From a phage, in assembly GCA_018015315.1 (NCBI GenBank), contig GCA_018015315.1_3629.1: a DNA stretch of 64,000 nucleotides; one strand, given 5' to 3'. Below the pieces are notes generated by a model. It saw only the letters and a list, made by a program, of their open reading frames with translations, was not told the DNA's origin and ran no database searches. The position numbers and the translations under genes were made by a program. The stretch's first letter is position 1. Each line of letters begins with the position of its first letter. Below, in pieces: positions 6,425 through 61,244 of this stretch.

Positions 6425-6901
6425 TTATTTTTGCTGTCCAATTTTAAAGGTTGCAGATTCCAGCAGCACATCGTAATGCCGCATAGCCTCGTTGAAGCCC
6501 TTCTCTTGTGCCCACTGCTCACTAACAGTAGGGTTACTAAACTGACCAGCCTCAATAACAAACTGGATAGCTTTGGCCCCTGTGTCCCCCATCTGCTTAA
6601 GAATAGCCTCTGCACTTGATCCTCTAGCCATAGCTCTCAACAATTTTTCTGTCAAGGTCTGTAGTTGAGTGCTGTGAAATGCAAAAGCTGTCTCCATGAA
6701 ATTGCGAACAGGCAGCCCGTTCCAACCGAAGTTGTGAATGGCTGCCAATGTTGCCATATTTAAGCCTGACGGGTGAGGTTCGTCATAAAAGCCGTAGGTT
6801 ATTGTTTTACTTTCAAGTCTCACAAGTTCTTTGTAGAAGCGATCTAAACGCTTTAGGTTGAACCTTGTTTGACATTTAACCTTTAGCATTATATCTCTCA
6901 C
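6425..6901 (-). CDS. hypothetical virion protein (head-tail joining region)
   Basis: 158 aa ORF in structural operon. Confidence 0.4.
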   Translation of the reverse strand: MRDIMLKVKCQTRFNLKRLDRFYKELVRLESKTITYGFYDEPHPSGLNMATLAAIHNFGWNGLPVRNFMETAFAFHSTQLQTLTEKLLRAMARGSSAEAILKQMGDTGAKAIQFVIEAGQFSNPTVSEQWAQEKGFNEAMRHYDVLLESATFKIGQQK

Positions 6902-15782: not shown

Positions 15783-15859
15783 TGGTCTCCACGGAGTGAT
15801 TCGAACACTCGACCTCCTGATCCCAAATCAGGCGCTCTACCAAGCTGAGCTACGCGGAG
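15783..15859 (-). tRNA. tRNA-Pro (anticodon TGG)
   Basis: cloverleaf by eye: 7-bp acceptor stem (one G-T), anticodon loop TTTGGGA, T-loop TTCGAAT, encoded CCA. Confidence 0.8.
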
Positions 15860-15870
15860 TATTTACTATT

Positions 15871-15945
15871 TGGTGGCCCTGGGTGGAATTGAACCACCGT
15901 CTGGCGATTATGAGTCGCTTGCTTGAACCTTCCAGCTACAGGGCC
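15871..15945 (-). tRNA. tRNA-Met (anticodon CAT; initiator, elongator or Ile-lysidine not distinguishable)
   Basis: perfect 7-bp acceptor GGCCCTG/CAGGGCC, loop CTCATAA, T-loop TTCAATT, encoded CCA. Confidence 0.8.
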
Positions 15946-15946
15946 T

Positions 15947-16022
15947 TGGTGCTGATGGCAGGACTTGAACCTGCAACATATTGATTACAAATCAATTGCA
16001 CTACCAATTGTGCTACATCAGC
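15947..16022 (-). tRNA. tRNA-Thr (anticodon TGT)
   Basis: acceptor GCTGATG/CATCAGC, anticodon loop TTTGTAA, T-loop TTCAAGT, encoded CCA. Confidence 0.8.
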
Positions 16023-16029
16023 AAAAAGG

Positions 16030-16126
16030 TGCTAGGTGATGGAATCGAACCATCTATGTATTCAACGACTACCTCGTCTATTTTCAGGATTAAAAATCCT
16101 CGCCCTTGCCAAAGGGCTTACCTAGC
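16030..16126 (-). tRNA. atypical type-II tRNA-like gene (Leu-like scaffold, apparent anticodon TTT)
   Basis: perfect acceptor GCTAGGT/ACCTAGC, D-arm, perfect T-arm GATGG-TTCGATT-CCATC, discriminator A; anticodon hairpin AGGATTTTTAATCCT; about 30-nt variable region with GACGA/TCGTT hairpin; CCA not encoded. Confidence 0.45.
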
Positions 16127-16224
16127 TCAGTATGTTGACCATGTTGCTAGTCGGCGATGACGACTGTAACATTTGATAATCCGGTTCTGCTTCCGGCTTT
16201 CGCTTAATTACAAGGTCAACAATG

Positions 16225-16315
16225 TGGCAGAGGATAATGGAATCGAACCATCATCGAGTCATCCTCAACGGGACGGTTTTCAAGACCGCTTGAGCACCAT
16301 TGCTCCCTACCCTCT
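16225..16315 (-). tRNA. tRNA-Ser (anticodon TGA)
   Basis: type-II: acceptor AGAGGGT/ATCCTCT, anticodon loop CTTGAAA, about 20-nt variable arm, discriminator G, encoded CCA. Confidence 0.7.
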
Positions 16316-16432
16316 TTTATTATAAACAATACTGATAATGACACTGATTTTCGAGCAGTTAGTGACTAGTATAAACGACGATAAATACCAATGCCATTAT
16401 CTGTATGATTTATGCATCTAAAAATATAAATT

Positions 16433-16519
16433 TGGTGGGGAGTGGTGGAGTCGAACCACCCGAGTCGCAATGACAATAGATTTACAGTCTACACCGCTAC
16501 CTCTACGGGATAACTCCCC
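16433..16519 (-). tRNA. tRNA-Tyr (anticodon GTA)
   Basis: type-II: acceptor GGGGAGT/ACTCCCC, anticodon loop CTGTAAA, long variable arm, discriminator A, encoded CCA. Confidence 0.8.
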
Positions 16520-16523
16520 AATT

Positions 16524-16598
16524 TGGCACCCCGTACTGGACTCGAACCAGTGTCAACGGCTTAGAAGGCCGCTGCTTTATCCACTAAGCTAACAGGGC
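16524..16598 (-). tRNA. tRNA-Arg (anticodon TCT)
   Basis: anticodon stem-loop GCGGC-CTTCTAA-GCCGT, T-arm ACTGG-TTCGAGT-CCAGT, acceptor with two G-T pairs, encoded CCA. Confidence 0.75.
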
Positions 16599-17033: not shown

Positions 17034-17377
17034 GTTTCCTCCATTATCACGTGATAGGTGGATTTTATCATAGCAAATACTGATTGTCAAGTTCGCCGCA
17101 GGGTGGTATTCCCTGCGACTTGTCCAGCGTCCTGGACCAGCAAGACCCAACAAGTGGGTTACCAGAGCCCATTACCGCGCTTTGGCTAGACCTTATTACA
17201 GGTTGGCTGGGGTCACATCGTCATGTGCTGGCTGCCCCTACCATTTTAAGTGTGGTGCACTATCAAGCTCTCTAAGGGGAACTCAGCCTTCTCCGAACCC
17301 TGTTTCAAAGCATCCGGAGATAAAGCCATCAAATTCATCTTTAAATTGGATATTCATCATGATACACGAAAACAACC

Positions 17378-17895: not shown

Positions 17896-18474
17896 TCAGC
17901 GTTCATAGTAAATCTTATTTAACATTACCTCATCCTTTGCAGAAAGGATATCTAGATATGCATCACCGAATCTACCTGCAACAACCTCTGCATGATACAT
18001 CACTTCGTTAATATCGTCAAGAGTGATAACTGGATGACCGTATCTCTCTGAGTATTGTCTCAGAGTGCGATGTAGGGAGTCATCATCATAGGCAGACTTT
18101 TTAATATCACAAACACGACGAATAGCCTTGATGTCGAAAAACCCTGTACGATACCAACCAAGAAAAAGGTTTCGTGCAGTGTCAACATCTACATCAATAC
18201 CATTAAGAACCTTATCTACAAGATAGCTGTCATCCTTTGGACCAGCTTCCTTAGTGCGAATGTAGTTGCCATCTTTTCCAGGTGACATCTCCTTCTCATC
18301 ACCAACCTGCATGCCATCATTTGGCGGTGTTAGCCACTTATCCGGATGCTTACGATCACGAGCGTTAGAATGATTACGCTGGAAACCAGGCTTCCACTTG
18401 AAAGTTTTCTCCATCTGTTCTTCATTCTGATAACGTTTTGCAATCTTTTCACGGTCATCTTTGCGTGAACCCAT
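17896..18474 (-). CDS. hypothetical protein
   Basis: 192 aa ORF; no recognisable motif. Confidence 0.45.
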   Translation of the reverse strand: MGSRKDDREKIAKRYQNEEQMEKTFKWKPGFQRNHSNARDRKHPDKWLTPPNDGMQVGDEKEMSPGKDGNYIRTKEAGPKDDSYLVDKVLNGIDVDVDTARNLFLGWYRTGFFDIKAIRRVCDIKKSAYDDDSLHRTLRQYSERYGHPVITLDDINEVMYHAEVVAGRFGDAYLDILSAKDEVMLNKIYYER

Positions 18475-18978
18475 AGCTGCCTCCTCTTCAAGTTATAGAA
18501 AAACTCACTGTATCACTTTGTAACGAGCTTTTCTATCAAACTGGTGCGATTGCATTACCTGGTATAGTTTATATAGCTGTGGAGCGATTTAGGGGCCTTC
18601 TTGTCAGTTTCCACACATAAACTTCATCCAAGCTCGCGCGGGAGACTCTCAACCGACTCCTTACGGCGCTGGCAAGCTTTCGTCGGTGGTCCACATCAGT
18701 GCTCGGCCTTTGGCCTGCGCTATCGCTTCGCTCCCACACATGTTAACAGACCTGCATGTATGCACTTCTGTTATTGTGTGCACCAAGGAGGCCCGGCATC
18801 TCGCCCATCGTAGGCGAGTGCCAATGAAGGGCCGACACTACCTATAGTAAGTAATAATTTTAAAACATGGTACTTAGGATCTAGTATATTCTACATAAGT
18901 TAAGTATATGTACTTAGTACCATAAGTACTAGATCTTTTATTTTTTATTATTTAGTTATTTTAGTTATATTCTTTATG

Positions 18979-19059
18979 TGTCCGTATCACGGACAGTTAG
19001 TGTCCGTATTACGGGCAGATGTGTCCGCGTGACGGACAGTAGTGTCCGTATCACGGACA
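18979..19059. repeat. four phased 17-bp palindromic sites TGTCCGT-nnn-ACGGACA
   Basis: sites at 18979-18995, 19001-19017, 19022-19038, 19043-19059; centre spacing 22/21/21 bp; flanked by AT-rich DNA. Confidence 0.8.
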
Positions 19060-19134
19060 GTTACTGACCTCTGTTCCAGAGCGAACATAAAACATACGAA
19101 TCCTTATAGTACAGATATTTAAGTTTTTACTGGT

Positions 19135-19485
19135 CTAACCAGTTGTTGACATTCGAATAACCTCTTCTGGTGGCAAAACTTTGGAAAATGTACATCTTTT
19201 ACCTCTCCCTTGTGTGGATATTTCAACCACTCCTGCACATTCTAAAGTTTTAACGCACGCTGCTGCTTTTGTTTTCTTTATCCCAACATCTGCTGCAATT
19301 TTCCTTGTGCTTGGTGTGAAGCGTGAATTTCCTCCAAGCTTATACCAGTTGTGCAGGTAGCAGTATACGATCTTGTCATATAAGTCAAGAACAACAACCT
19401 CCCCAGTTGTGTCATTCAAAACTTTTGACATAGACAGTATTTCAAGGGGGACTTTAAGATATAGCAGCTTATCCCCATCTTTCAT
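19135..19485 (-). CDS. putative winged-helix DNA-binding protein
   Basis: 116 aa; C-terminal segment resembles HTH/winged-helix; gene ends about 60 bp from palindrome array. Confidence 0.4.
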   Translation of the reverse strand: MKDGDKLLYLKVPLEILSMSKVLNDTTGEVVVLDLYDKIVYCYLHNWYKLGGNSRFTPSTRKIAADVGIKKTKAAACVKTLECAGVVEISTQGRGKRCTFSKVLPPEEVIRMSTTG

Positions 19486-56116: not shown

Positions 56117-56424
56117 GGTGGATTATGTCTACAAAGACGGCTAAATACTCCTACATGCCATCAACCTCTGCAGAGGTAGATTTTAGTTTCGATGTGTTTC
56201 CACTGTTTGAGGTGGTTCTGGCATACCCAACAATACTATCTACTCCGGAATCACTTGTGCCTGTTAAGTTGCAGAACGCCATGCATTCTATGCACTACAA
56301 CAATAAATGCAGGCACAGATGGTGTCAGGACGAGGAAAAAGATCTGGATAGTTTGAGAGATTTTGACAGTCACCTTTTGACACCTTTCAGCTACTCCAAC
56401 CTTGATAAGCCATCATGGGTATAG
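56113..56424 (+). CDS. hypothetical protein
   Basis: 103 aa; terminator downstream. Confidence 0.4.
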   Translation: MRWIMSTKTAKYSYMPSTSAEVDFSFDVFPLFEVVLAYPTILSTPESLVPVKLQNAMHSMHYNNKCRHRWCQDEEKDLDSLRDFDSHLLTPFSYSNLDKPSWV

Positions 56425-56448
56425 CAAAATATCAAATTTAAGACACCT

Positions 56449-56479
56449 AGGACGCTCTGTGGCGTCCTTTTCTTTATTT
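56449..56479 (+). terminator. rho-independent terminator
   Basis: AGGACGC-TCTGTG-GCGTCCT followed by TTTTCTTTATTT. Confidence 0.65.
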
Positions 56480-56637
56480 AGTGCACGATTGCATACCTTG
56501 GACAGATAATCTCATTACAGAGCGTTTAAGAGCTTCCTACAAACAACTCCATATTTCGAGCGTAGCGAGAACGCACGTCCGTTTTGACCCAAATCACCAT
56601 ACGCTCGGATTTTAACCAAACCCTCGCGGCGTTTCTG

Positions 56638-56666
56638 TTGACACATTATCGCTCCAGTGATAATAT
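56638..56666 (+). promoter_or_regulatory. sigma70-like promoter
   Basis: TTGACA-17 bp-TAATAT; lies inside track ORF 56584-56997. Confidence 0.5.
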
Positions 56667-56686
56667 CCACACATCATTTGGAGAAT

Positions 56687-56788
56687 ATGGAATACACAAT
56701 GAAAACACTGTCCGAAGTTTTGGTGGTGATCCTGATGATCATTACGTCCATAGCAGCTGTTGCCGGAATACTCACGGGTGGAACATGA
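56687..56788 (+). CDS. small hydrophobic peptide (33 aa)
   Basis: ATG after GGAGA (short spacing); single TM-like segment; stop overlaps next ATG. Confidence 0.3.
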   Translation: MEYTMKTLSEVLVVILMIITSIAAVAGILTGGT

Positions 56789-56997
56789 TCAACACACATG
56801 TATCTGAAGAGACATCCGAAGGAGTTACCATATGTCCATTGGCTGAGCCAGTGAAAGAGGAAAACTTCGATTCTGATGACTCTTCATCTTCGCTCCAGGT
56901 AGACCCTGAGGCTGATGACCTGACGTGGGAAGACATCGTAGATATCTGGTTCTCTATTATGCCTGAGCACGAAGAGTTCAGGGGCGGTAGACTATGA
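56785..56997 (+). CDS. small acidic protein
   Basis: 69 aa; C-terminal part of track ORF 56584-56997, restarted downstream of promoter. Confidence 0.4.
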   Translation: MINTHVSEETSEGVTICPLAEPVKEENFDSDDSSSSLQVDPEADDLTWEDIVDIWFSIMPEHEEFRGGRL

Positions 56998-57117
56998 AGC
57001 ACCGAGCCCACACAGGTTCCTCATGCTAAAGCATGGCCTGAAGAGGCAAACGTGCATAATTCCTGTGCATTGTGACGTATAAAACCCGTTCACACTCTCA
57101 TTTCCAGAGGAGATTTC

Positions 57118-57333
57118 ATGAAGATAGAAATATTTGGTGGAGTTGACAACACTCGTGGCCTGATTTACCTTGAATTCGATGAATCATACCTGCCAGAGGT
57201 GTTAAATATAGACTCTGTTGCTGAGGCTTTGGGAGTAAACCCTAAAGAACTCCACTCTTGTGCTGAGATCGATGGTTGGGAAGAGACCATGAACATTGAT
57301 TTCAGTGAAGTAGAGGATGAACCGCTGGACTGA
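57118..57333 (+). CDS. small acidic protein
   Basis: MKIEIFGG N-terminus like other family members; last plus-strand gene before non-coding region. Confidence 0.45.
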   Translation: MKIEIFGGVDNTRGLIYLEFDESYLPEVLNIDSVAEALGVNPKELHSCAEIDGWEETMNIDFSEVEDEPLD

Positions 57334-57683
57334 CACACAATTAGCTGCCAGGCTAAAGTGCTGGAAGCACCTATAACACATCTTTCAACTAAATTTCCTA
57401 CCACCACAATCACTTACCTCCCACACATGACTGTTTGCTTGTTTAGTGAGCAGTCATGCCTTGACATTCTTGCCTATCCTGATAAAATTAAGTTCTTCTC
57501 TTTTCTTTTACCGAGTAATTCGGGTTTTCTGTTCTCTTCGGTTTGAAGGGGTATGGAGATACACCTGAGTGAACAGGGTGAACAACCGAACATTTGGCTA
57601 TGGCATTAGCATGGCGAAGCGGACGGGTGACGAAAGAGGGGCCGGAGGACACCAGTCACTGCCATATGGTATATGGGTGATAA

Positions 57684-58224
57684 CCTGAAGAGTCTGAATA
57701 AGTGTTTAAGTACCAGTCAGAGGAAAAGGTGAATGGTAGCCGAAGGGGGAGGGGGGTTTCTTGTATCTTTAATTTGTATATTATGTATACACTTGTAAAC
57801 CAATCTCATTTGAATTTGTTTACCACACAAAGTGGATAGAGACAAATATTACCTATTAAACTTGAATTATTTATAGAAAATACCACAACACTACTTAAGT
57901 CTTTGATTTTACACACAAATCCTGCAGATATTCACCCTCCATATTTAACATACTTGTAACATATTCCATACTCTACCTGCCCGATCAATTCACCCAACTA
58001 CATCCCCATATTTTCCCTGTCTGTACTACCCCTGCCCCGCCGGGAGTCCCGTCATATCTGGCTTTCCAGCAAATATCACACCCACAAATATCATTGCCTG
58101 AAGAGGGTTTCATCCCATAGTACATGCCTTACCTGAAGAGCGCTTCATATACCCCGTAAATTTTTTAATTGACACCCTCCCCGCCGCCGGAGGGGGTTGG
58201 CTTTTCCCACACAGACCTGAAGAG
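57684..58224 (+). repeat. dispersed direct repeat CCTGAAGAG (4 copies)
   Basis: exact 9-mers at 57684, 58097, 58132, 58216 in non-coding DNA. Confidence 0.7.
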
Positions 58225-58785
58225 CCAGCCAGAAATATCTGAACAGGTCCAGCTATGCCACGATTTTGTGCTTGTCCTACAGGAGTGCTTCCCTGTCAGG
58301 AGCCGGTAGCGACTGGAGTGCTGCCAGGCGGACGAAATGGGAATACTTCTCATTCTTATAACAATTCTCAAATATCGAGGCAGTGAGACAAATTAATAGG
58401 CTTTGCCGTTCACACAATGGCACAACATTTGCAGCCTATCTTGTGGGGGGTGAATGAGAATACCTATCATTGCGAGAATAGTTATCATTACGGGCAATTT
58501 AACATAATACCCATTATGCGCACCACTGGCGATATATACAGGGGTTAATAACATGGTGGACTGTTTACGCACATTACAATTGCATTACTTATTATTTGTG
58601 TGGGATATAGTTAGCCACCAACAGATTGCATAATAACCTGCAGACTTCCAGCCGTCCAGACGCCTAAGCGCCTACACAATAAGGATTATACATACACAAC
58701 TGAATGTAAACAGGGCCGCAAAAATGCTACCATACAAGATTGTAAATTTTTCATGCAGCACTTGACAAAGAGGAGAAAAACTTGT

Positions 58786-58875
58786 CTGACATACTGGTGA
58801 CATAATATGACACTTTAGACACAATAGTGACATACTGGACACGATATGACACACTGGGCATAATTGACATACCTG
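58786..58875 (+). repeat. iteron-like array of (A/T)GACA(C/T)A motifs at 10-11 bp spacing
   Basis: about 8 copies, including TGACATACTGG twice and TGACACACTGG once. Confidence 0.7.
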
Positions 58876-58983
58876 ACTGTTTACGCTGTCACTATTCACT
58901 CGCTTACATGCTTAATAGACTACATGACTAATAGTTTACATAGCTAACTGTTCACGTATAGATTGTTTACTTAAAAATGATAA

Positions 58984-59264
58984 GCCATGCCATTCGTTTG
59001 CATGATAAAGATTAGCAAGTTAATAATCTTTCACTGGCTATGCCAGGTGACCTTTTGTCACCTCTTCGGGTGTTTCTATGACATAATATAAAAGCAGGGC
59101 AACTATTAGCAGATCTATAGTTGCCTTGCTTGTTATGTCATGATTAACTAAATACAAGGCAACTATGATCTGATTAATAGATTGCAGACAAACTATCACG
59201 GGGGTGATGGTTACTGCTTTTATATTATGTCGCGACTCCGTCGCGCCATGCCATTCGTTTGCAT
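58984..59264 (+). repeat. 20-bp perfect direct repeat GCCATGCCATTCGTTTGCAT (2 copies)
   Basis: copies at 58984-59003 and 59245-59264. Confidence 0.8.
59098..59125. repeat. palindrome GGCAACTAT-10 bp-ATAGTTGCC
   Basis: 9-bp inverted repeat; further half-site copies near 59160 and 59265. Confidence 0.75.
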
Positions 59265-59880
59265 AGTTGCCTTATTGTTACAGATAAAATAATTATATTG
59301 TTAATTATTTCTTATCTTTCTCTTAGTCATCTAATGATTCCAGTCAGTATAGTAATGTACAGTAAACATTAGACGACTAAAGATTTATCTGCTTATAATA
59401 ACTTACCGTGACAATTCCGGACTGTTTACGAAAAATGTTGACACCTGAGCTGATTTATGTTATGCAATTTACACGAATAATTATTTTATGCAGGTATTGA
59501 CTATTACGTTATTCTATGGTCGGAATAAATACTTAGCGGACTATAGAATGGTGACGCTACGTGAATTCTGGAATTTAGTGGCTATAGTTATACCCGATTT
59601 TTCACGTAGAACACGCTTTTGTGGTTATGTAAGTGTATGACTTATAAAGATTTTTAGTTGTTGACAAGGCACTGAAGATATGCATCAGGTTAAATTTTGT
59701 GCAATAGCTGCATTACGTGCAATTTTGGAAGGAAAAACGTGTAAAAATGGCCCTGCTACCACACAATGAAAGATTATGCAATAGCTATTTTACATGTATA
59801 TTTGTACAGTGTGTGGGATTGATGGCTAGTCAATTATTCCACTTGCCAGGCTGGGCCGTTTGTGGTAGGAGAAATACAGA

Positions 59881-59909
59881 CAAAAAGAAAGGGGCCTTTT
59901 AAAGCCCCT
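59881..59909 (-). terminator. rho-independent terminator
   Basis: GGGGC..GCCCC hairpin followed by U-tract on minus strand; 20 bp downstream of stop of 59928-60347. Confidence 0.6.
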
Positions 59910-59927
59910 GATAGTTTAGTTAAGAAA

Positions 59928-60347
59928 TTATAATGATTCGTATATTTGATAGATTCGATTTGCCAGGTCATTACGATAGCGGAATTTTTCATCACGCTTG
60001 ATCATCAGATCTTTGAAGCCATATTCTTTAAGCACTTCATTAACTTTATAGCGGCATACCTTCATATTATCTTGCGCGTCACCGATAAACTTGTTGCTAT
60101 GATGCATGGCTTTGATCTCTTCCTCCAGGACCAGGGCAACTACGCGGACCGGATCAAGCTGATATGCGGTAACATCAATGCGGCATTGTAAACGGCTTTT
60201 AACGTCTGCCACCGGATATACTGCAACCTCTTCCCCGTCAACATTCACAATAACCAGTTTACCATCAATTTCAAAACCTTTTGCGGCTGGGCCGTGACAA
60301 AAAGCGTTATCAAAGCTGTATGCGGGATTGTTAGATTTAATATTCAT
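59928..60347 (-). CDS. hypothetical protein
   Basis: 139 aa; own promoter and terminator. Confidence 0.5.
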   Translation of the reverse strand: MNIKSNNPAYSFDNAFCHGPAAKGFEIDGKLVIVNVDGEEVAVYPVADVKSRLQCRIDVTAYQLDPVRVVALVLEEEIKAMHHSNKFIGDAQDNMKVCRYKVNEVLKEYGFKDLMIKRDEKFRYRNDLANRIYQIYESL

Positions 60348-60393
60348 GGTGTTTACCTCTTAGATAATTTTCTTACAACTTCCCTTCAAAAAG

Positions 60394-60422
60394 AATATAG
60401 CAAAACTGCCGATCCCTGTCAA
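60394..60422 (-). promoter_or_regulatory. sigma70-like promoter
   Basis: minus-strand TTGACA-17 bp-TATATT. Confidence 0.5.
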
Positions 60423-60483
60423 CAAGGGATAGCATAATTTTTGTGTGGGCAATAGGGGCCGTAGCCCCTGGTTGTATCGCCTG

Positions 60484-60747
60484 TTATTTGTTATTCATCC
60501 AGTTTTCCCAAGATGCCTGATACTCGGCCTCACTGCGGCGGATCTCTTCTTGTTCTGCAAGGCGGATCTCTTCTTCCAGGTAGCCTAAGATGTCAGCTTT
60601 TTTGGTCTGGCGTAACATCCAATCGTCCTTTTTGCGAGTAAAGATTTTATATGCTTTCTCACAAACTTCTTTTTTGCTACCTTTCTGTACTTCAAGGATA
60701 CGGTAGGCCATGTATTGAACTAATTTAAGTTGGTCGATACGTTTCAT
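60484..60747 (-). CDS. hypothetical protein
   Basis: 87 aa ORF. Confidence 0.45.
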   Translation of the reverse strand: MKRIDQLKLVQYMAYRILEVQKGSKKEVCEKAYKIFTRKKDDWMLRQTKKADILGYLEEEIRLAEQEEIRRSEAEYQASWENWMNNK

Positions 60748-60806
60748 GATGTTTTCCTCTTTTGTGGTCTTGATTAGTGGGCCTTCCGGCCCGTGTCATT
60801 ATCTTA

Positions 60807-61079
60807 TTACTTACGGCGGCAGAATTCAAGGGTTTTTAATTGATAATCTTCCTCGGCCTGGAGTACAACCGCCTCGATCATTTCGTTGGCATTGTTGAAG
60901 CCATAACCTTTAGCGAACTCATCCGCACCACCTTTGTGATCATGTTCTGCGTTCATCGCTTCCACAAAATGGAATTCCAGATTGTTAAGGTATGGGCTTG
61001 ATGTTCCGTCCTCTTTTTCGATGAGATCCCAAATAGCATTAAAACGTGATTCGACTTCTTGATTAATCCAGCTTGACAT
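60807..61079 (-). CDS. hypothetical acidic protein
   Basis: 90 aa; GAGAGAGGAAAA RBS. Confidence 0.45.
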   Translation of the reverse strand: MSSWINQEVESRFNAIWDLIEKEDGTSSPYLNNLEFHFVEAMNAEHDHKGGADEFAKGYGFNNANEMIEAVVLQAEEDYQLKTLEFCRRK

Positions 61080-61244
61080 AATGTTTTCCTCTCTCCTGGT
61101 TGTTGTGTGGGCACCTTTGCCCCTTCAAGATAAATGTTAACTCACTTATCGAAAGGTGTCAACGGTTTTTATAGTTCTTATATGACAGGCAGGCCCGGTG
61201 ATTGTCTCCCCCCGTCGCCAGGTGCCTGCCGTATAATAAGTATA

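Follow-up and report, generated by a model that had tools for sequence, protein, structure and literature searches.

A conserved hairpin array beside a candidate replication origin of rV5-like phages, with modules in common with satellite-like plasmids of E. coli

The lambda origin and the origins of iteron plasmids have a layout of four phased dyad iterons and an AT-rich stretch; in ori-lambda the O-protein iterons are accompanied by an AT-rich region and a flanking palindrome. The ssi signals, or primosome assembly sites, are single-strand hairpins that lie near plasmid origins. Other non-coding hairpin elements of phages work in different ways. The nut sites of lambda and the put sites of HK022, which offer an analogy, belong to leader RNAs that modify RNA polymerase, and the PeSL cassettes of T4-type phages are mobile repeats made of a promoter plus a stem-loop. 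For rV5-like phages, neither the origin of replication nor the pac site is known (PMC3606486).

The locus described here is a G+C-rich intergenic island in an rV5-like Vequintavirus (an Escherichia myovirus), the source of the window, that is, of the whole 64-kb stretch of DNA analysed. The island is real, conserved and selected for pairing, with the layout given in Table 1. The favoured reading, with a probability of roughly 40%, is that it forms a cis-acting single-strand hairpin array flanking a replication origin, with a role at the DNA level. The 621 nt around the island are matched by 119 phage records at 90-99.7% identity, all from rV5-like Escherichia myoviruses of the genus Vequintavirus, and the island is conserved in the 119 at 88-99.7%. 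Some of these records carry the label "Campylobacter phage", which is wrong.

Table 1. Features in and around the intergenic gap (positions in the window)
Feature	Position	Strand	Remarks
192-aa gene, phrog_12226	17896..18474	minus	ORF; first gene downstream of island
Conserved 5' region of 192-aa gene	18475..18559	minus	diversity 0.044
Pre-RBS hairpin, 12 bp, one G.U	18525-18536 with 18495-18506		5' of 192-aa gene
Palindrome TGCAATCGCA	18545-18554		within conserved 5' region of 192-aa gene
Variable spacer	18560..18632	minus	diversity 0.117
H4: ATGTGGACC, 6-bp stem, 24-nt loop GAAAGCTTGCCAGCGCCGKAAGGA, then GAGAGNCTCCCGCGCG	18633..18696	minus	satellite-shared core
H3: TGTGTGGG, GCGAAGC..GATA..GCGC mini-hairpins, GGCC-AAA-GGCC	18697..18740	minus	diversity 0.036
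H2, variable, outer stem CACACA..TGTGTG	18735..18780	minus	dispensable; diversity 0.10
H1, outer stem 18790-18794/18829-18833, inner stem 18795-18805/18814-18823	18786..18838	minus	fold
AT-rich stretch, candidate DNA-unwinding element	18846..18977		19.7% G+C
Four iterons, 17-bp dyad TGTCCGTATCACGGACA each, spacing 21-22 bp	18978..19069		diversity 0.036
116-aa winged-helix gene	19135..19485	minus	ORF; transcriptionally directly upstream of gap
56-aa ORF	18739..18569	minus	overlaps island
31-aa ORF	18838..18743	minus	overlaps island
70-aa ORF	18601..18813	plus	overlaps island

The original prediction of a GC-rich island in AT-rich intergenic DNA holds. The segment 18600-18840 has a G+C content of 0.560, whereas the window averages 0.429 (sd 0.036 in 241-nt windows; z 3.6), and just 0.04% of all 241-nt windows reach the value of the segment. 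The 241-nt maximum of the whole window (0.568) starts at 18594, within the island, whose natural limits are about 18590-18845 (G+C 56%). The jump in composition to the adjoining 132 nt (18846-18977; 19.7% G+C) is very sharp.

The gene-free gap around the island is 660 nt long and lies between the 116-aa and 192-aa genes, both of which, like all genes neighbouring the island, are on the minus strand. Read along that strand, the order is the winged-helix (wHTH) gene, four iterons, the AT-rich stretch, the hairpin array and the 192-aa gene. The 192-aa gene has the RBS GAGGAGG. No relative of its protein was found in the PDB, its AlphaFold model (pLDDT 48.7) is too poor for a fold search, and a homologue with 50% identity sits in a packed, unrelated gene context. 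About 2 kb downstream of the island are seven tRNA genes, which are all the tRNA genes of the window (15783-16598); ARAGORN and Rfam find no tRNA or tmRNA in the island itself.

The island is non-coding. Some GenBank records, BASEL records among them, list the 56-aa and 31-aa ORFs as hypothetical proteins. Nucleotide diversity was taken per codon position (1/2/3) across 15 phage genomes, and is.061/.088/.067 for the 56-aa ORF,.074/.060/.043 for the 31-aa ORF and.066/.040/.082 for the 70-aa ORF, compared with.051/.017/.123 for the flanking 192-aa gene. An excess of variation at third positions is absent from all three island ORFs in these genomes. In addition, the reading frames of the 31-aa and 70-aa ORFs are disrupted by indels inside them, a +1 insertion in ECML10 and a -1 deletion in MaxTheCat, and the plasmid copies treated further on do not keep the ORFs. 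A small protein-coding ORF is rejected by the codon-phase diversity and the frameshifting indels, and the original view that the island holds no convincing ORF was correct.

Judged by the diversity values among the 15 genomes, purifying selection acts on H1, H3, H4, the iterons and the AT-rich stretch but not on H2 and the spacer. The AT-rich stretch, which contains the inverted repeat ATGGTACTTAG/CTTAGTACCAT, is the most conserved non-coding segment (diversity 0.017). H1 (0.024) is nearly invariant in 13 phages, and H4 (.056) has three hypervariable sites and is otherwise invariant. The hairpins H1, H3 and H4 vary 2-5 times less than the third codon positions of the 192-aa gene (.123), and are nearly invariant even in the most divergent relative, in which the flanking protein is 83% identical; the third-position value for the 116-aa gene is.069 in the same set. 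In Pr121LW, typing phage 5 and MaxTheCat, H2 has lost 18 nt, and it also carries non-compensated changes. The spacer holds the third TGTGTGG of the island (18611-18617) and a conserved GCCCCTAAAT (18587-18596) that is also present in the satellite-like plasmids. TGTGTGG occurs three times in the island, 3-5 times in the plasmid arrays and at 27 sites in the window. A promoter role for GCCCCTAAAT or TGCAATYGCA was rejected, as neither is enriched in the window.

H1 is a two-tier hairpin in which GGCCC/GGGCC surrounds GGCACUCGCC/GGCGAG-A-UGCC, with a conserved 5' flank GTGTC. Its 16 pairs are 100% paired in seven distinct sequences (slid controls 34-50%), and two of them are compensatory with respect to plasmid NZ_CP020521. 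The H4 stem ACCGAC/GTCGGT (18682-18687 with 18652-18657) encloses an invariant 24-nt loop and is 100% paired in 15 of 15 distinct sequences, against 25-57% for slid partners. Between phage and plasmid this stem changes to GCTGCC/GGCAGC with the loop identical, and three of the six pairs differ on both sides (A-U to G-C, C-G to U-A, and A-U to C-G). In total, five stem positions are changed on both sides and none on a single side; the number of independent events behind them is small, because they all fall between the phage clade and the plasmid clade. Still, five double changes without any single-sided one are not what drift gives. The original prediction had named an Rfam scan and RNA folding with covariation as checks; the scan matched no family, and the covariation analysis yielded these compensatory pairs in H1 and H4.

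The fold of the island as RNA has a z score of -2.6, and both strands fold equally well as RNA. Folded as DNA, the sense (minus) strand has a z score of -3.1, with none of 200 shuffles as good. In a census of stems chosen by eye, 217 of 218 pairs are Watson-Crick and 20 of 27 loops are triloops. All wobbles present read as G.U on the minus strand (in H4 of Aya and of an IMGVR sequence, at the terminal H1 pair, and in the pre-RBS hairpin), so that the strand specificity of the pairing rests on few wobble pairs, with the H4 G.U in two phages. A polymorphic loop site is either GUAA or GGAA, with the GNRA tetraloop and a C-G closing pair retained. Long-range closing helices from the MFE folds were discarded, since the variants give them no support, and the data are compatible with a 3-bp GGA/UCC pseudoknot yet uninformative about it.

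The array may be the fourth element of a lambda-type origin module, after the wHTH gene, the iterons and a 130-bp AT-rich region. The 116-aa protein matches Pfam HTH_36 (E 2e-5) and DUF6945, as well as phrog_12838, phrog_8102 and phrog_428, all three annotated as "replication initiation protein"; in relatives it is annotated either as a transcriptional regulator or as a replication initiation protein. The locus thus combines an adjacent wHTH gene that is initiator-like at the level of annotation with at least three phased repeats, here four 17-bp dyads, beside 132 nt of AT-rich DNA. The iteron motif has seven matches in the window, all of them in the iteron block, against 0.43 expected. Scanning for other origin motifs found no DnaA boxes in the locus and no enrichment of T7-type primase sites or pentamers on the sense strand.

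In the proposed mechanism, the 116-aa protein would bind the iterons, and the AT-rich DNA would then melt. The minus strand, which runs 5' to 3' away from the melted region, would be the lagging-strand template of a leftward fork, and once exposed it could fold into H1, H3 and H4. The hairpins would hold the bubble open and may also serve as ssi-like signals, for helicase or primase loading or for the first primers. The satellite-like plasmids bring iterons and an initiator-like protein of their own, and the hairpin module would therefore be the component recognized by machinery that phage and plasmid replicons share. That the locus is an origin, that the array acts as DNA rather than RNA and that it takes part in priming or loading are all inferences. 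The DNA-level role is favoured because the stems are Watson-Crick and most of the loops are triloops, an argument that is only suggestive given that the stems in the census were picked by eye. The hairpins also include GCGAAGC and C-GAAA-G motifs, both of which form very stable DNA mini-hairpins.

Several observations bear on where the origin lies. The window's cumulative GC skew reaches its minimum at about 20 kb, a signal confounded by its coincidence with a change of gene orientation 1.5 kb away; the rV5 genome paper also noted a skew minimum at the orientation switch and did not locate the origin (PMC3606486). A second, larger gene-poor region with repeats, at 56.4-61.2 kb, could equally hold the origin, and the four dyads could be mere operators of a 116-aa repressor. 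The exact H4 sequence is not indispensable to the plasmids, as three to four of ten carry a different last unit. The GNRA tetraloop kept at the GUAA/GGAA site and the sense-strand G.U pairs fit an RNA as well.

The plasmids were found by blastn of the island against complete E. coli genomes and PLSDB, which retrieved small circular plasmids of about 13.2-13.7 kb (NZ_CP020521, NZ_CP035869, NZ_CP178698 and CP148565) and a 39.6-kb trimer, NZ_CP043822. Among 5,426 complete E. coli genomes the island has no chromosomal match, and the six places found are all on small plasmids; a host-derived chromosomal fragment is rejected on this count. The plasmids encode a major capsid protein (phrog_29), a Dit-like tail-tube initiator that is 50% identical to Vequintavirus proteins, a tail-completion protein 45% identical to the product of 6461-6883 in the window, and a tape-measure protein 25% identical to that of 826-2544. 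They also encode small HTH proteins and an initiator-type protein of about 300 aa that matches HTH_36 and the PHROG O-like initiator families. The similarity of the 116-aa phage protein to the plasmid Rep proteins is a generic wHTH similarity only. No terminase, portal, sheath or tube genes are annotated on the 13-kb plasmids. The plasmid capsid protein family has more than 450 member sequences, and these occur only in E. coli, on contigs of 13.2-14.3 kb. By their gene content, the 13-kb plasmids look like satellites of rV5-like phages.

The hairpin modules lie in a 2.2-2.9-kb non-coding region of these elements. Of ten elements examined, seven have H4 (84-85% identity over 61-68 nt) and one has H1 (84% over 61 nt). 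Three to four of the ten lack the H4 core, and most lack H1. The elements without H4 have another last unit between the same flanks, with a different stem and loop (A-TGTGGA-GTCCGGAT-(18 nt)-ATCCGGAC-..TTCCGCGCGC), and no phage record in the collection matches it. The array units of the plasmids are paralogous, each consisting of TGTGTGGG followed by three mini-hairpins whose stems differ while the complementarity is kept (GTGCC/GGCAC, GTCAC/GTGAC and GTGCT/AGCAC in one set; TTAGCC/GGCTAA, TTTAGCT/AGCTAAA and TTAAGCC/GGCTTAA in another).

The order in the plasmids begins with four to five AT-rich iterons (ACCTGTAAAATATTTTACTACT / ACCTGTAAAATATTTT..), followed by C/G-run hairpins and the TGTGTGGG-hairpin array, which ends in H4. 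Downstream of the array are the blocks CCCCTAAAT and TGCAATTGCATTAC, a sigma70 promoter (TTGACA-17-TAAGAT) and the initiator operon. The phage gap is colinear with this order of iterons, array and operon, and H4 (in one case H1) occupies the equivalent place in both. A second triple-hairpin element common to phage and plasmids is found at 59027-59077 in the window, with a degenerate copy at 56804-56860; its position varies among the plasmids, and it has one compensatory pair. The original prediction had also offered an acquired fragment as an explanation. Modular exchange has taken place, because two modules are common to the phage and the satellite-like plasmids, and a recent passive insert does not fit because the island is fixed and conserved in the whole genus.

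The island family is narrow. The island occurs in about 119 Vequintavirus genomes, and blastn against 50,697 phage and 72,556 plasmid records returned only Vequintavirus and the 13-kb elements, with no known ssi or microvirus origin. The covariance model R1, built on H3-H4, detects one copy in each phage and one in each H4-type plasmid, and no others. Scanning 185,579 species genomes for exact 18-mers gave 59 loci as candidates for a wider family, which was rejected because they score no more than 25 bits with R1, the level of chance. Apart from chance look-alikes in coding sequence, the 20-mer scan of metagenomes yielded rV5-like and satellite contigs alone, and IMG/VR contributed one rV5-like contig. 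In the sister groups Mydovirus and Phapecoctavirus the island is absent from the syntenic place, where Phapecoctavirus has an AT-rich GTACT-repeat region instead.

The main rival reading, possible if rather doubtful, is that the island is transcribed on the minus strand and acts as an RNA, either a structured 5' leader or a non-coding RNA. As a long leader of the 192-aa operon it could govern processing, stability or nut/put-like processive antitermination; as a non-coding RNA it could use the invariant 24-nt H4 loop to bind a protein or a target RNA, and in the satellite-like plasmids the same module would tap the same helper or host factor. The orientation of the neighbouring genes, the minus-strand G.U wobbles, the GNRA tetraloop retained at the only polymorphic loop site and the RNA fold z score of -2.6 all agree with such a role, and covarying stems with invariant loops are seen in many RNA elements. 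The similar triple-hairpin element at 59027-59077 lies directly after a promoter-like TTGCAT-17-TAATAA. There is also a precedent in phiTE, a phage of the same subfamily, which has a functional non-coding RNA locus (pseudo-ToxI).

The transcription signals point the other way. Neither strand of 18300-19300 has a sigma70-like promoter or an intrinsic terminator (hairpin plus T run; 0 sites), so that the array has no such promoter upstream or terminator downstream. The plasmids have a single clear sigma70 promoter, which follows the array, and terminator-like hairpins that are oriented the other way. Rfam gives zero matches at gathering thresholds for 18400-19100 and for the plasmid non-coding region, which has none at E 10 either, and up to E 10 the hits in the phage are at chance level only (rli43, 22.8 bits against a threshold of 100). 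The near absence of G.U pairs, the dominance of triloops and the equal folding of both strands as RNA also argue against an RNA, and the H4 loop has no complementary stretch of at least 11 nt, as expected of an antisense target, in the phage or the plasmids. Of the original prediction of a structured RNA, the selected structure is upheld by compensatory changes in two hairpins and by constraint above that on synonymous sites. The RNA level is not upheld, given the empty Rfam result, the lack of a bracketing promoter and terminator, and the Watson-Crick triloop stems that would fit DNA at least as well.

A further proposal concerns what the phage and the plasmids share. It is unlikely, though possible, that the island is the helper-side copy of a cis element common to rV5-like phages and undescribed 13-kb plasmid satellites, in which H4 would be the plug-in point for helper replication or packaging, and H4 and the alternative last units would define specificity classes. 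Another reading, which is improbable, takes the shared modules as the satellites' handle on the helper, namely the Vequintavirus terminase pac region or a helper-activator site, with the island as the phage's own copy of that signal. H4, together with the single instance of H1, is the only non-coding similarity of at least 60 nt between the 13-kb elements and the phage, and these elements combine their own capsid gene with tail genes 25-50% identical to Vequintavirus proteins. P4, which shares cos with its helper P2, is a precedent for such an arrangement, and the repetition of TGTGTGG in the island and in the plasmid arrays could reflect a recognition signal of this type. Packaging in vequintaviruses, which is of the headful type and starts at a still unmapped pac site (PMC8407724; PMC13211470), also agrees with it. 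However, terminase small subunits and activators read duplex DNA, for which compensatory stem changes are not expected, and the island is far from any terminase gene of the window. The lack of H4 in three to four of the ten elements and of H1 in most, with an alternative unit that matches no phage, also weighs against a handle, as does the dispersal of TGTGTGG over the window, and the helper dependence of the 13-kb elements is itself putative.

It is very improbable that the island is a tolerated, functionless remnant (a fragment exchanged with satellites, or a decayed gene) conserved only through the short divergence time of the genus, or that it codes for the annotated small proteins: the confinement of the family to one genus and its satellites, the nearly neutral H2 (partly deleted in three phages) and post-core spacer, and the 56-aa and 31-aa ORFs in BASEL records would suit these explanations, but H1, H3 and H4 are too constrained relative to synonymous sites and too nearly invariant in the most divergent relative, compensatory substitutions preserve 100% pairing, and the ORFs lack codon periodicity, suffer frameshifting indels and are absent from the satellite copies.

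The rV5-like phages are widely used in phage therapy and biocontrol, and the conserved module of iterons, AT-rich DNA and hairpins provides a concrete origin candidate for them. The most interesting by-product is the link to an apparently undescribed satellite family; no account of the island, of the rV5 origin or of the 13-kb satellites was found in the literature. If the plasmids are indeed satellites, therapeutic phages could suffer interference from them or help to spread them, and the hairpin module would be a handle on how a satellite recognizes a large virulent helper. Should the shared cis element prove true, rV5-like phages would provide the first case of a large virulent coliphage with a satellite system, along with a new single-strand recognition element.

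Set against known systems, the element falls in no Rfam family, and the searches made here found no known ssi or origin sequence like it. As in P2/P4 cos and SaPI pac, a non-coding block is common to a phage and small elements that have related morphogenetic genes; unlike those, the block of the island shows single-strand covariation and is not in all elements, and helper dependence is putative. The PeSL cassettes of T4-type phages likewise combine a short motif with a G+C-rich stem-loop at several intergenic places, with positions that differ among relatives, whereas here no promoter or consensus -10/-35 can be assigned to TGTGTGG and the units are clustered in arrays.

The nut boxA/boxB of lambda and the put of HK022 resemble the locus in that a short conserved single-stranded motif precedes small hairpins, with a long operon downstream; they differ in that the island has no promoter upstream, its motifs are unrelated, and the plasmid promoter is downstream of the array. 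The ssi signals (RSF1010 ssiA/ssiB, the R1 G-site, and the G4 and phiX174 types) share with it conserved hairpins beside iterons and an AT-rich region, invariant loop and flank bases, and a module common to different replicons; pairing selected on one strand may be a further likeness. Unlike them, the island has no detectable sequence similarity to microvirus or plasmid ssi elements, and its strand specificity depends on a few wobbles. With the lambda origin and iteron plasmids the locus has in common a wHTH protein, initiator-like in the phage, beside four phased dyad repeats, an AT-rich stretch and inverted-repeat DNA. Unlike lambda, its initiator-like protein of 116 aa has no C-terminal domain to bind a helicase loader, its module is intergenic rather than inside the initiator gene, and its hairpin region is about 250 bp compared with 28 bp. 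By analogy, its nearest functional counterparts would be the palindrome that flanks ori-lambda and the ssi signals near plasmid origins, or, if the island acts as RNA, leaders of the nut/put type.

The four iterons near the G+C-rich hairpin array (the island), the AT-rich stretch and the 116-aa HTH_36 gene form a candidate lambda-type origin of rV5-like phages. The AT-rich stretch directly follows the iterons; no other non-coding DNA at this locus is as conserved. A gene-poor region elsewhere in the window could be an alternative site for the origin, or a pac site or early control region. It is the counterpart of the 'non-coding' box in the rV5 genome paper (PMC3606486), has transcription running towards it from both sides, and contains the maximum of the cumulative GC skew. 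Repeats are abundant in it, including TGACATACTGG(T/A)GACA.. at 58787-58870 and two copies of GCCATGCCATTCGTTTGCAT.

Positions in the window of the features discussed
Feature	Position	Description
tRNA-like gene	16028-16126	99 nt
Second G+C-rich stretch	17034-17300	G+C about 0.54
AT-rich stretch	18846-18977	132 nt, 19.7% G+C
Four iterons	18978-19069	17-bp dyad TGTCCGTATCACGGACA, period 21-22 bp
Gene-poor region	~56400-61200	3-5 kb
Triple mini-hairpin element	59027-59077 (+), 56804-56860 (-)	51 nt
TGTGTGG, sites among the 27	18611-18617, 18734-18740, 20582, 56667, 57823, 58207, 58597, 59759, 59810, 60442, 61104	

The heptamer TGTGTGG occurs at 27 sites in the window, where 9.3 +/- 3.1 are expected. 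It is often intergenic, lying either about 10-12 nt 3' of a TTGACA/TTGCAT-like hexamer or immediately 5' of a G+C-rich hairpin, and it is found 3-5 times in the satellite arrays. Its candidate roles are a promoter element or a component of CCACACA/TGTGTGG stems.

The satellites are a family of circular E. coli elements of ~13 kb each (L006, L076, L077, L078, L083 and L095-L099; L006 is NZ_CP020521.1, 13,689 bp). They have a major capsid gene of their own; over 450 sequences belong to the capsid family, and E. coli is the source of every one. Their tape-measure, tail-tube-initiator (Dit-like) and tail-completion genes are Vequintavirus-related. They also encode an HTH_36/O-like initiator-type protein and contain a non-coding region of 2.2-2.9 kb. 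Their annotation includes no gene for a terminase, portal, tube or sheath protein. These elements resemble satellites of rV5-like phages, carried as plasmids and apparently undescribed.

A triple mini-hairpin element is common to the phage and the satellites (84-88%). Its three mini-hairpins are CTGGC-TAT-GCCAG, GGTGAC-CTTTT-GTCACC and CC-TTCG-GG, with a compensatory change in one pair. The position of the element varies by satellite: it is inside the Rep ORF in L006, in non-coding DNA in L076 and in a small ORF in L077. The element resembles a mobile module in its behaviour.

The second G+C-rich stretch is located 1.3 kb downstream of the island, between a 112-aa gene and small genes, and has no annotated gene. 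Its RNA fold is unremarkable (z -1.5), and no similarity to the satellites was found. The tRNA-like gene has an odd anticodon loop; ARAGORN reports it as 'tRNA-???' with a 4-base anticodon, and the Rfam tRNA model scores it at 37.5 bits. Its counterpart in relatives is annotated as tRNA-Lys or tRNA-OTHER, and the gene may carry an insertion or intron.

Escherichia phage anhysbys (L092), a Phapecoctavirus from another subfamily, has an AT-rich region at 1840-2080 that adjoins its tRNA block and contains GTACT repeats and agatct motifs. This region is akin to the AT-rich DNA at the rV5 locus, though it lacks a G+C-rich island.
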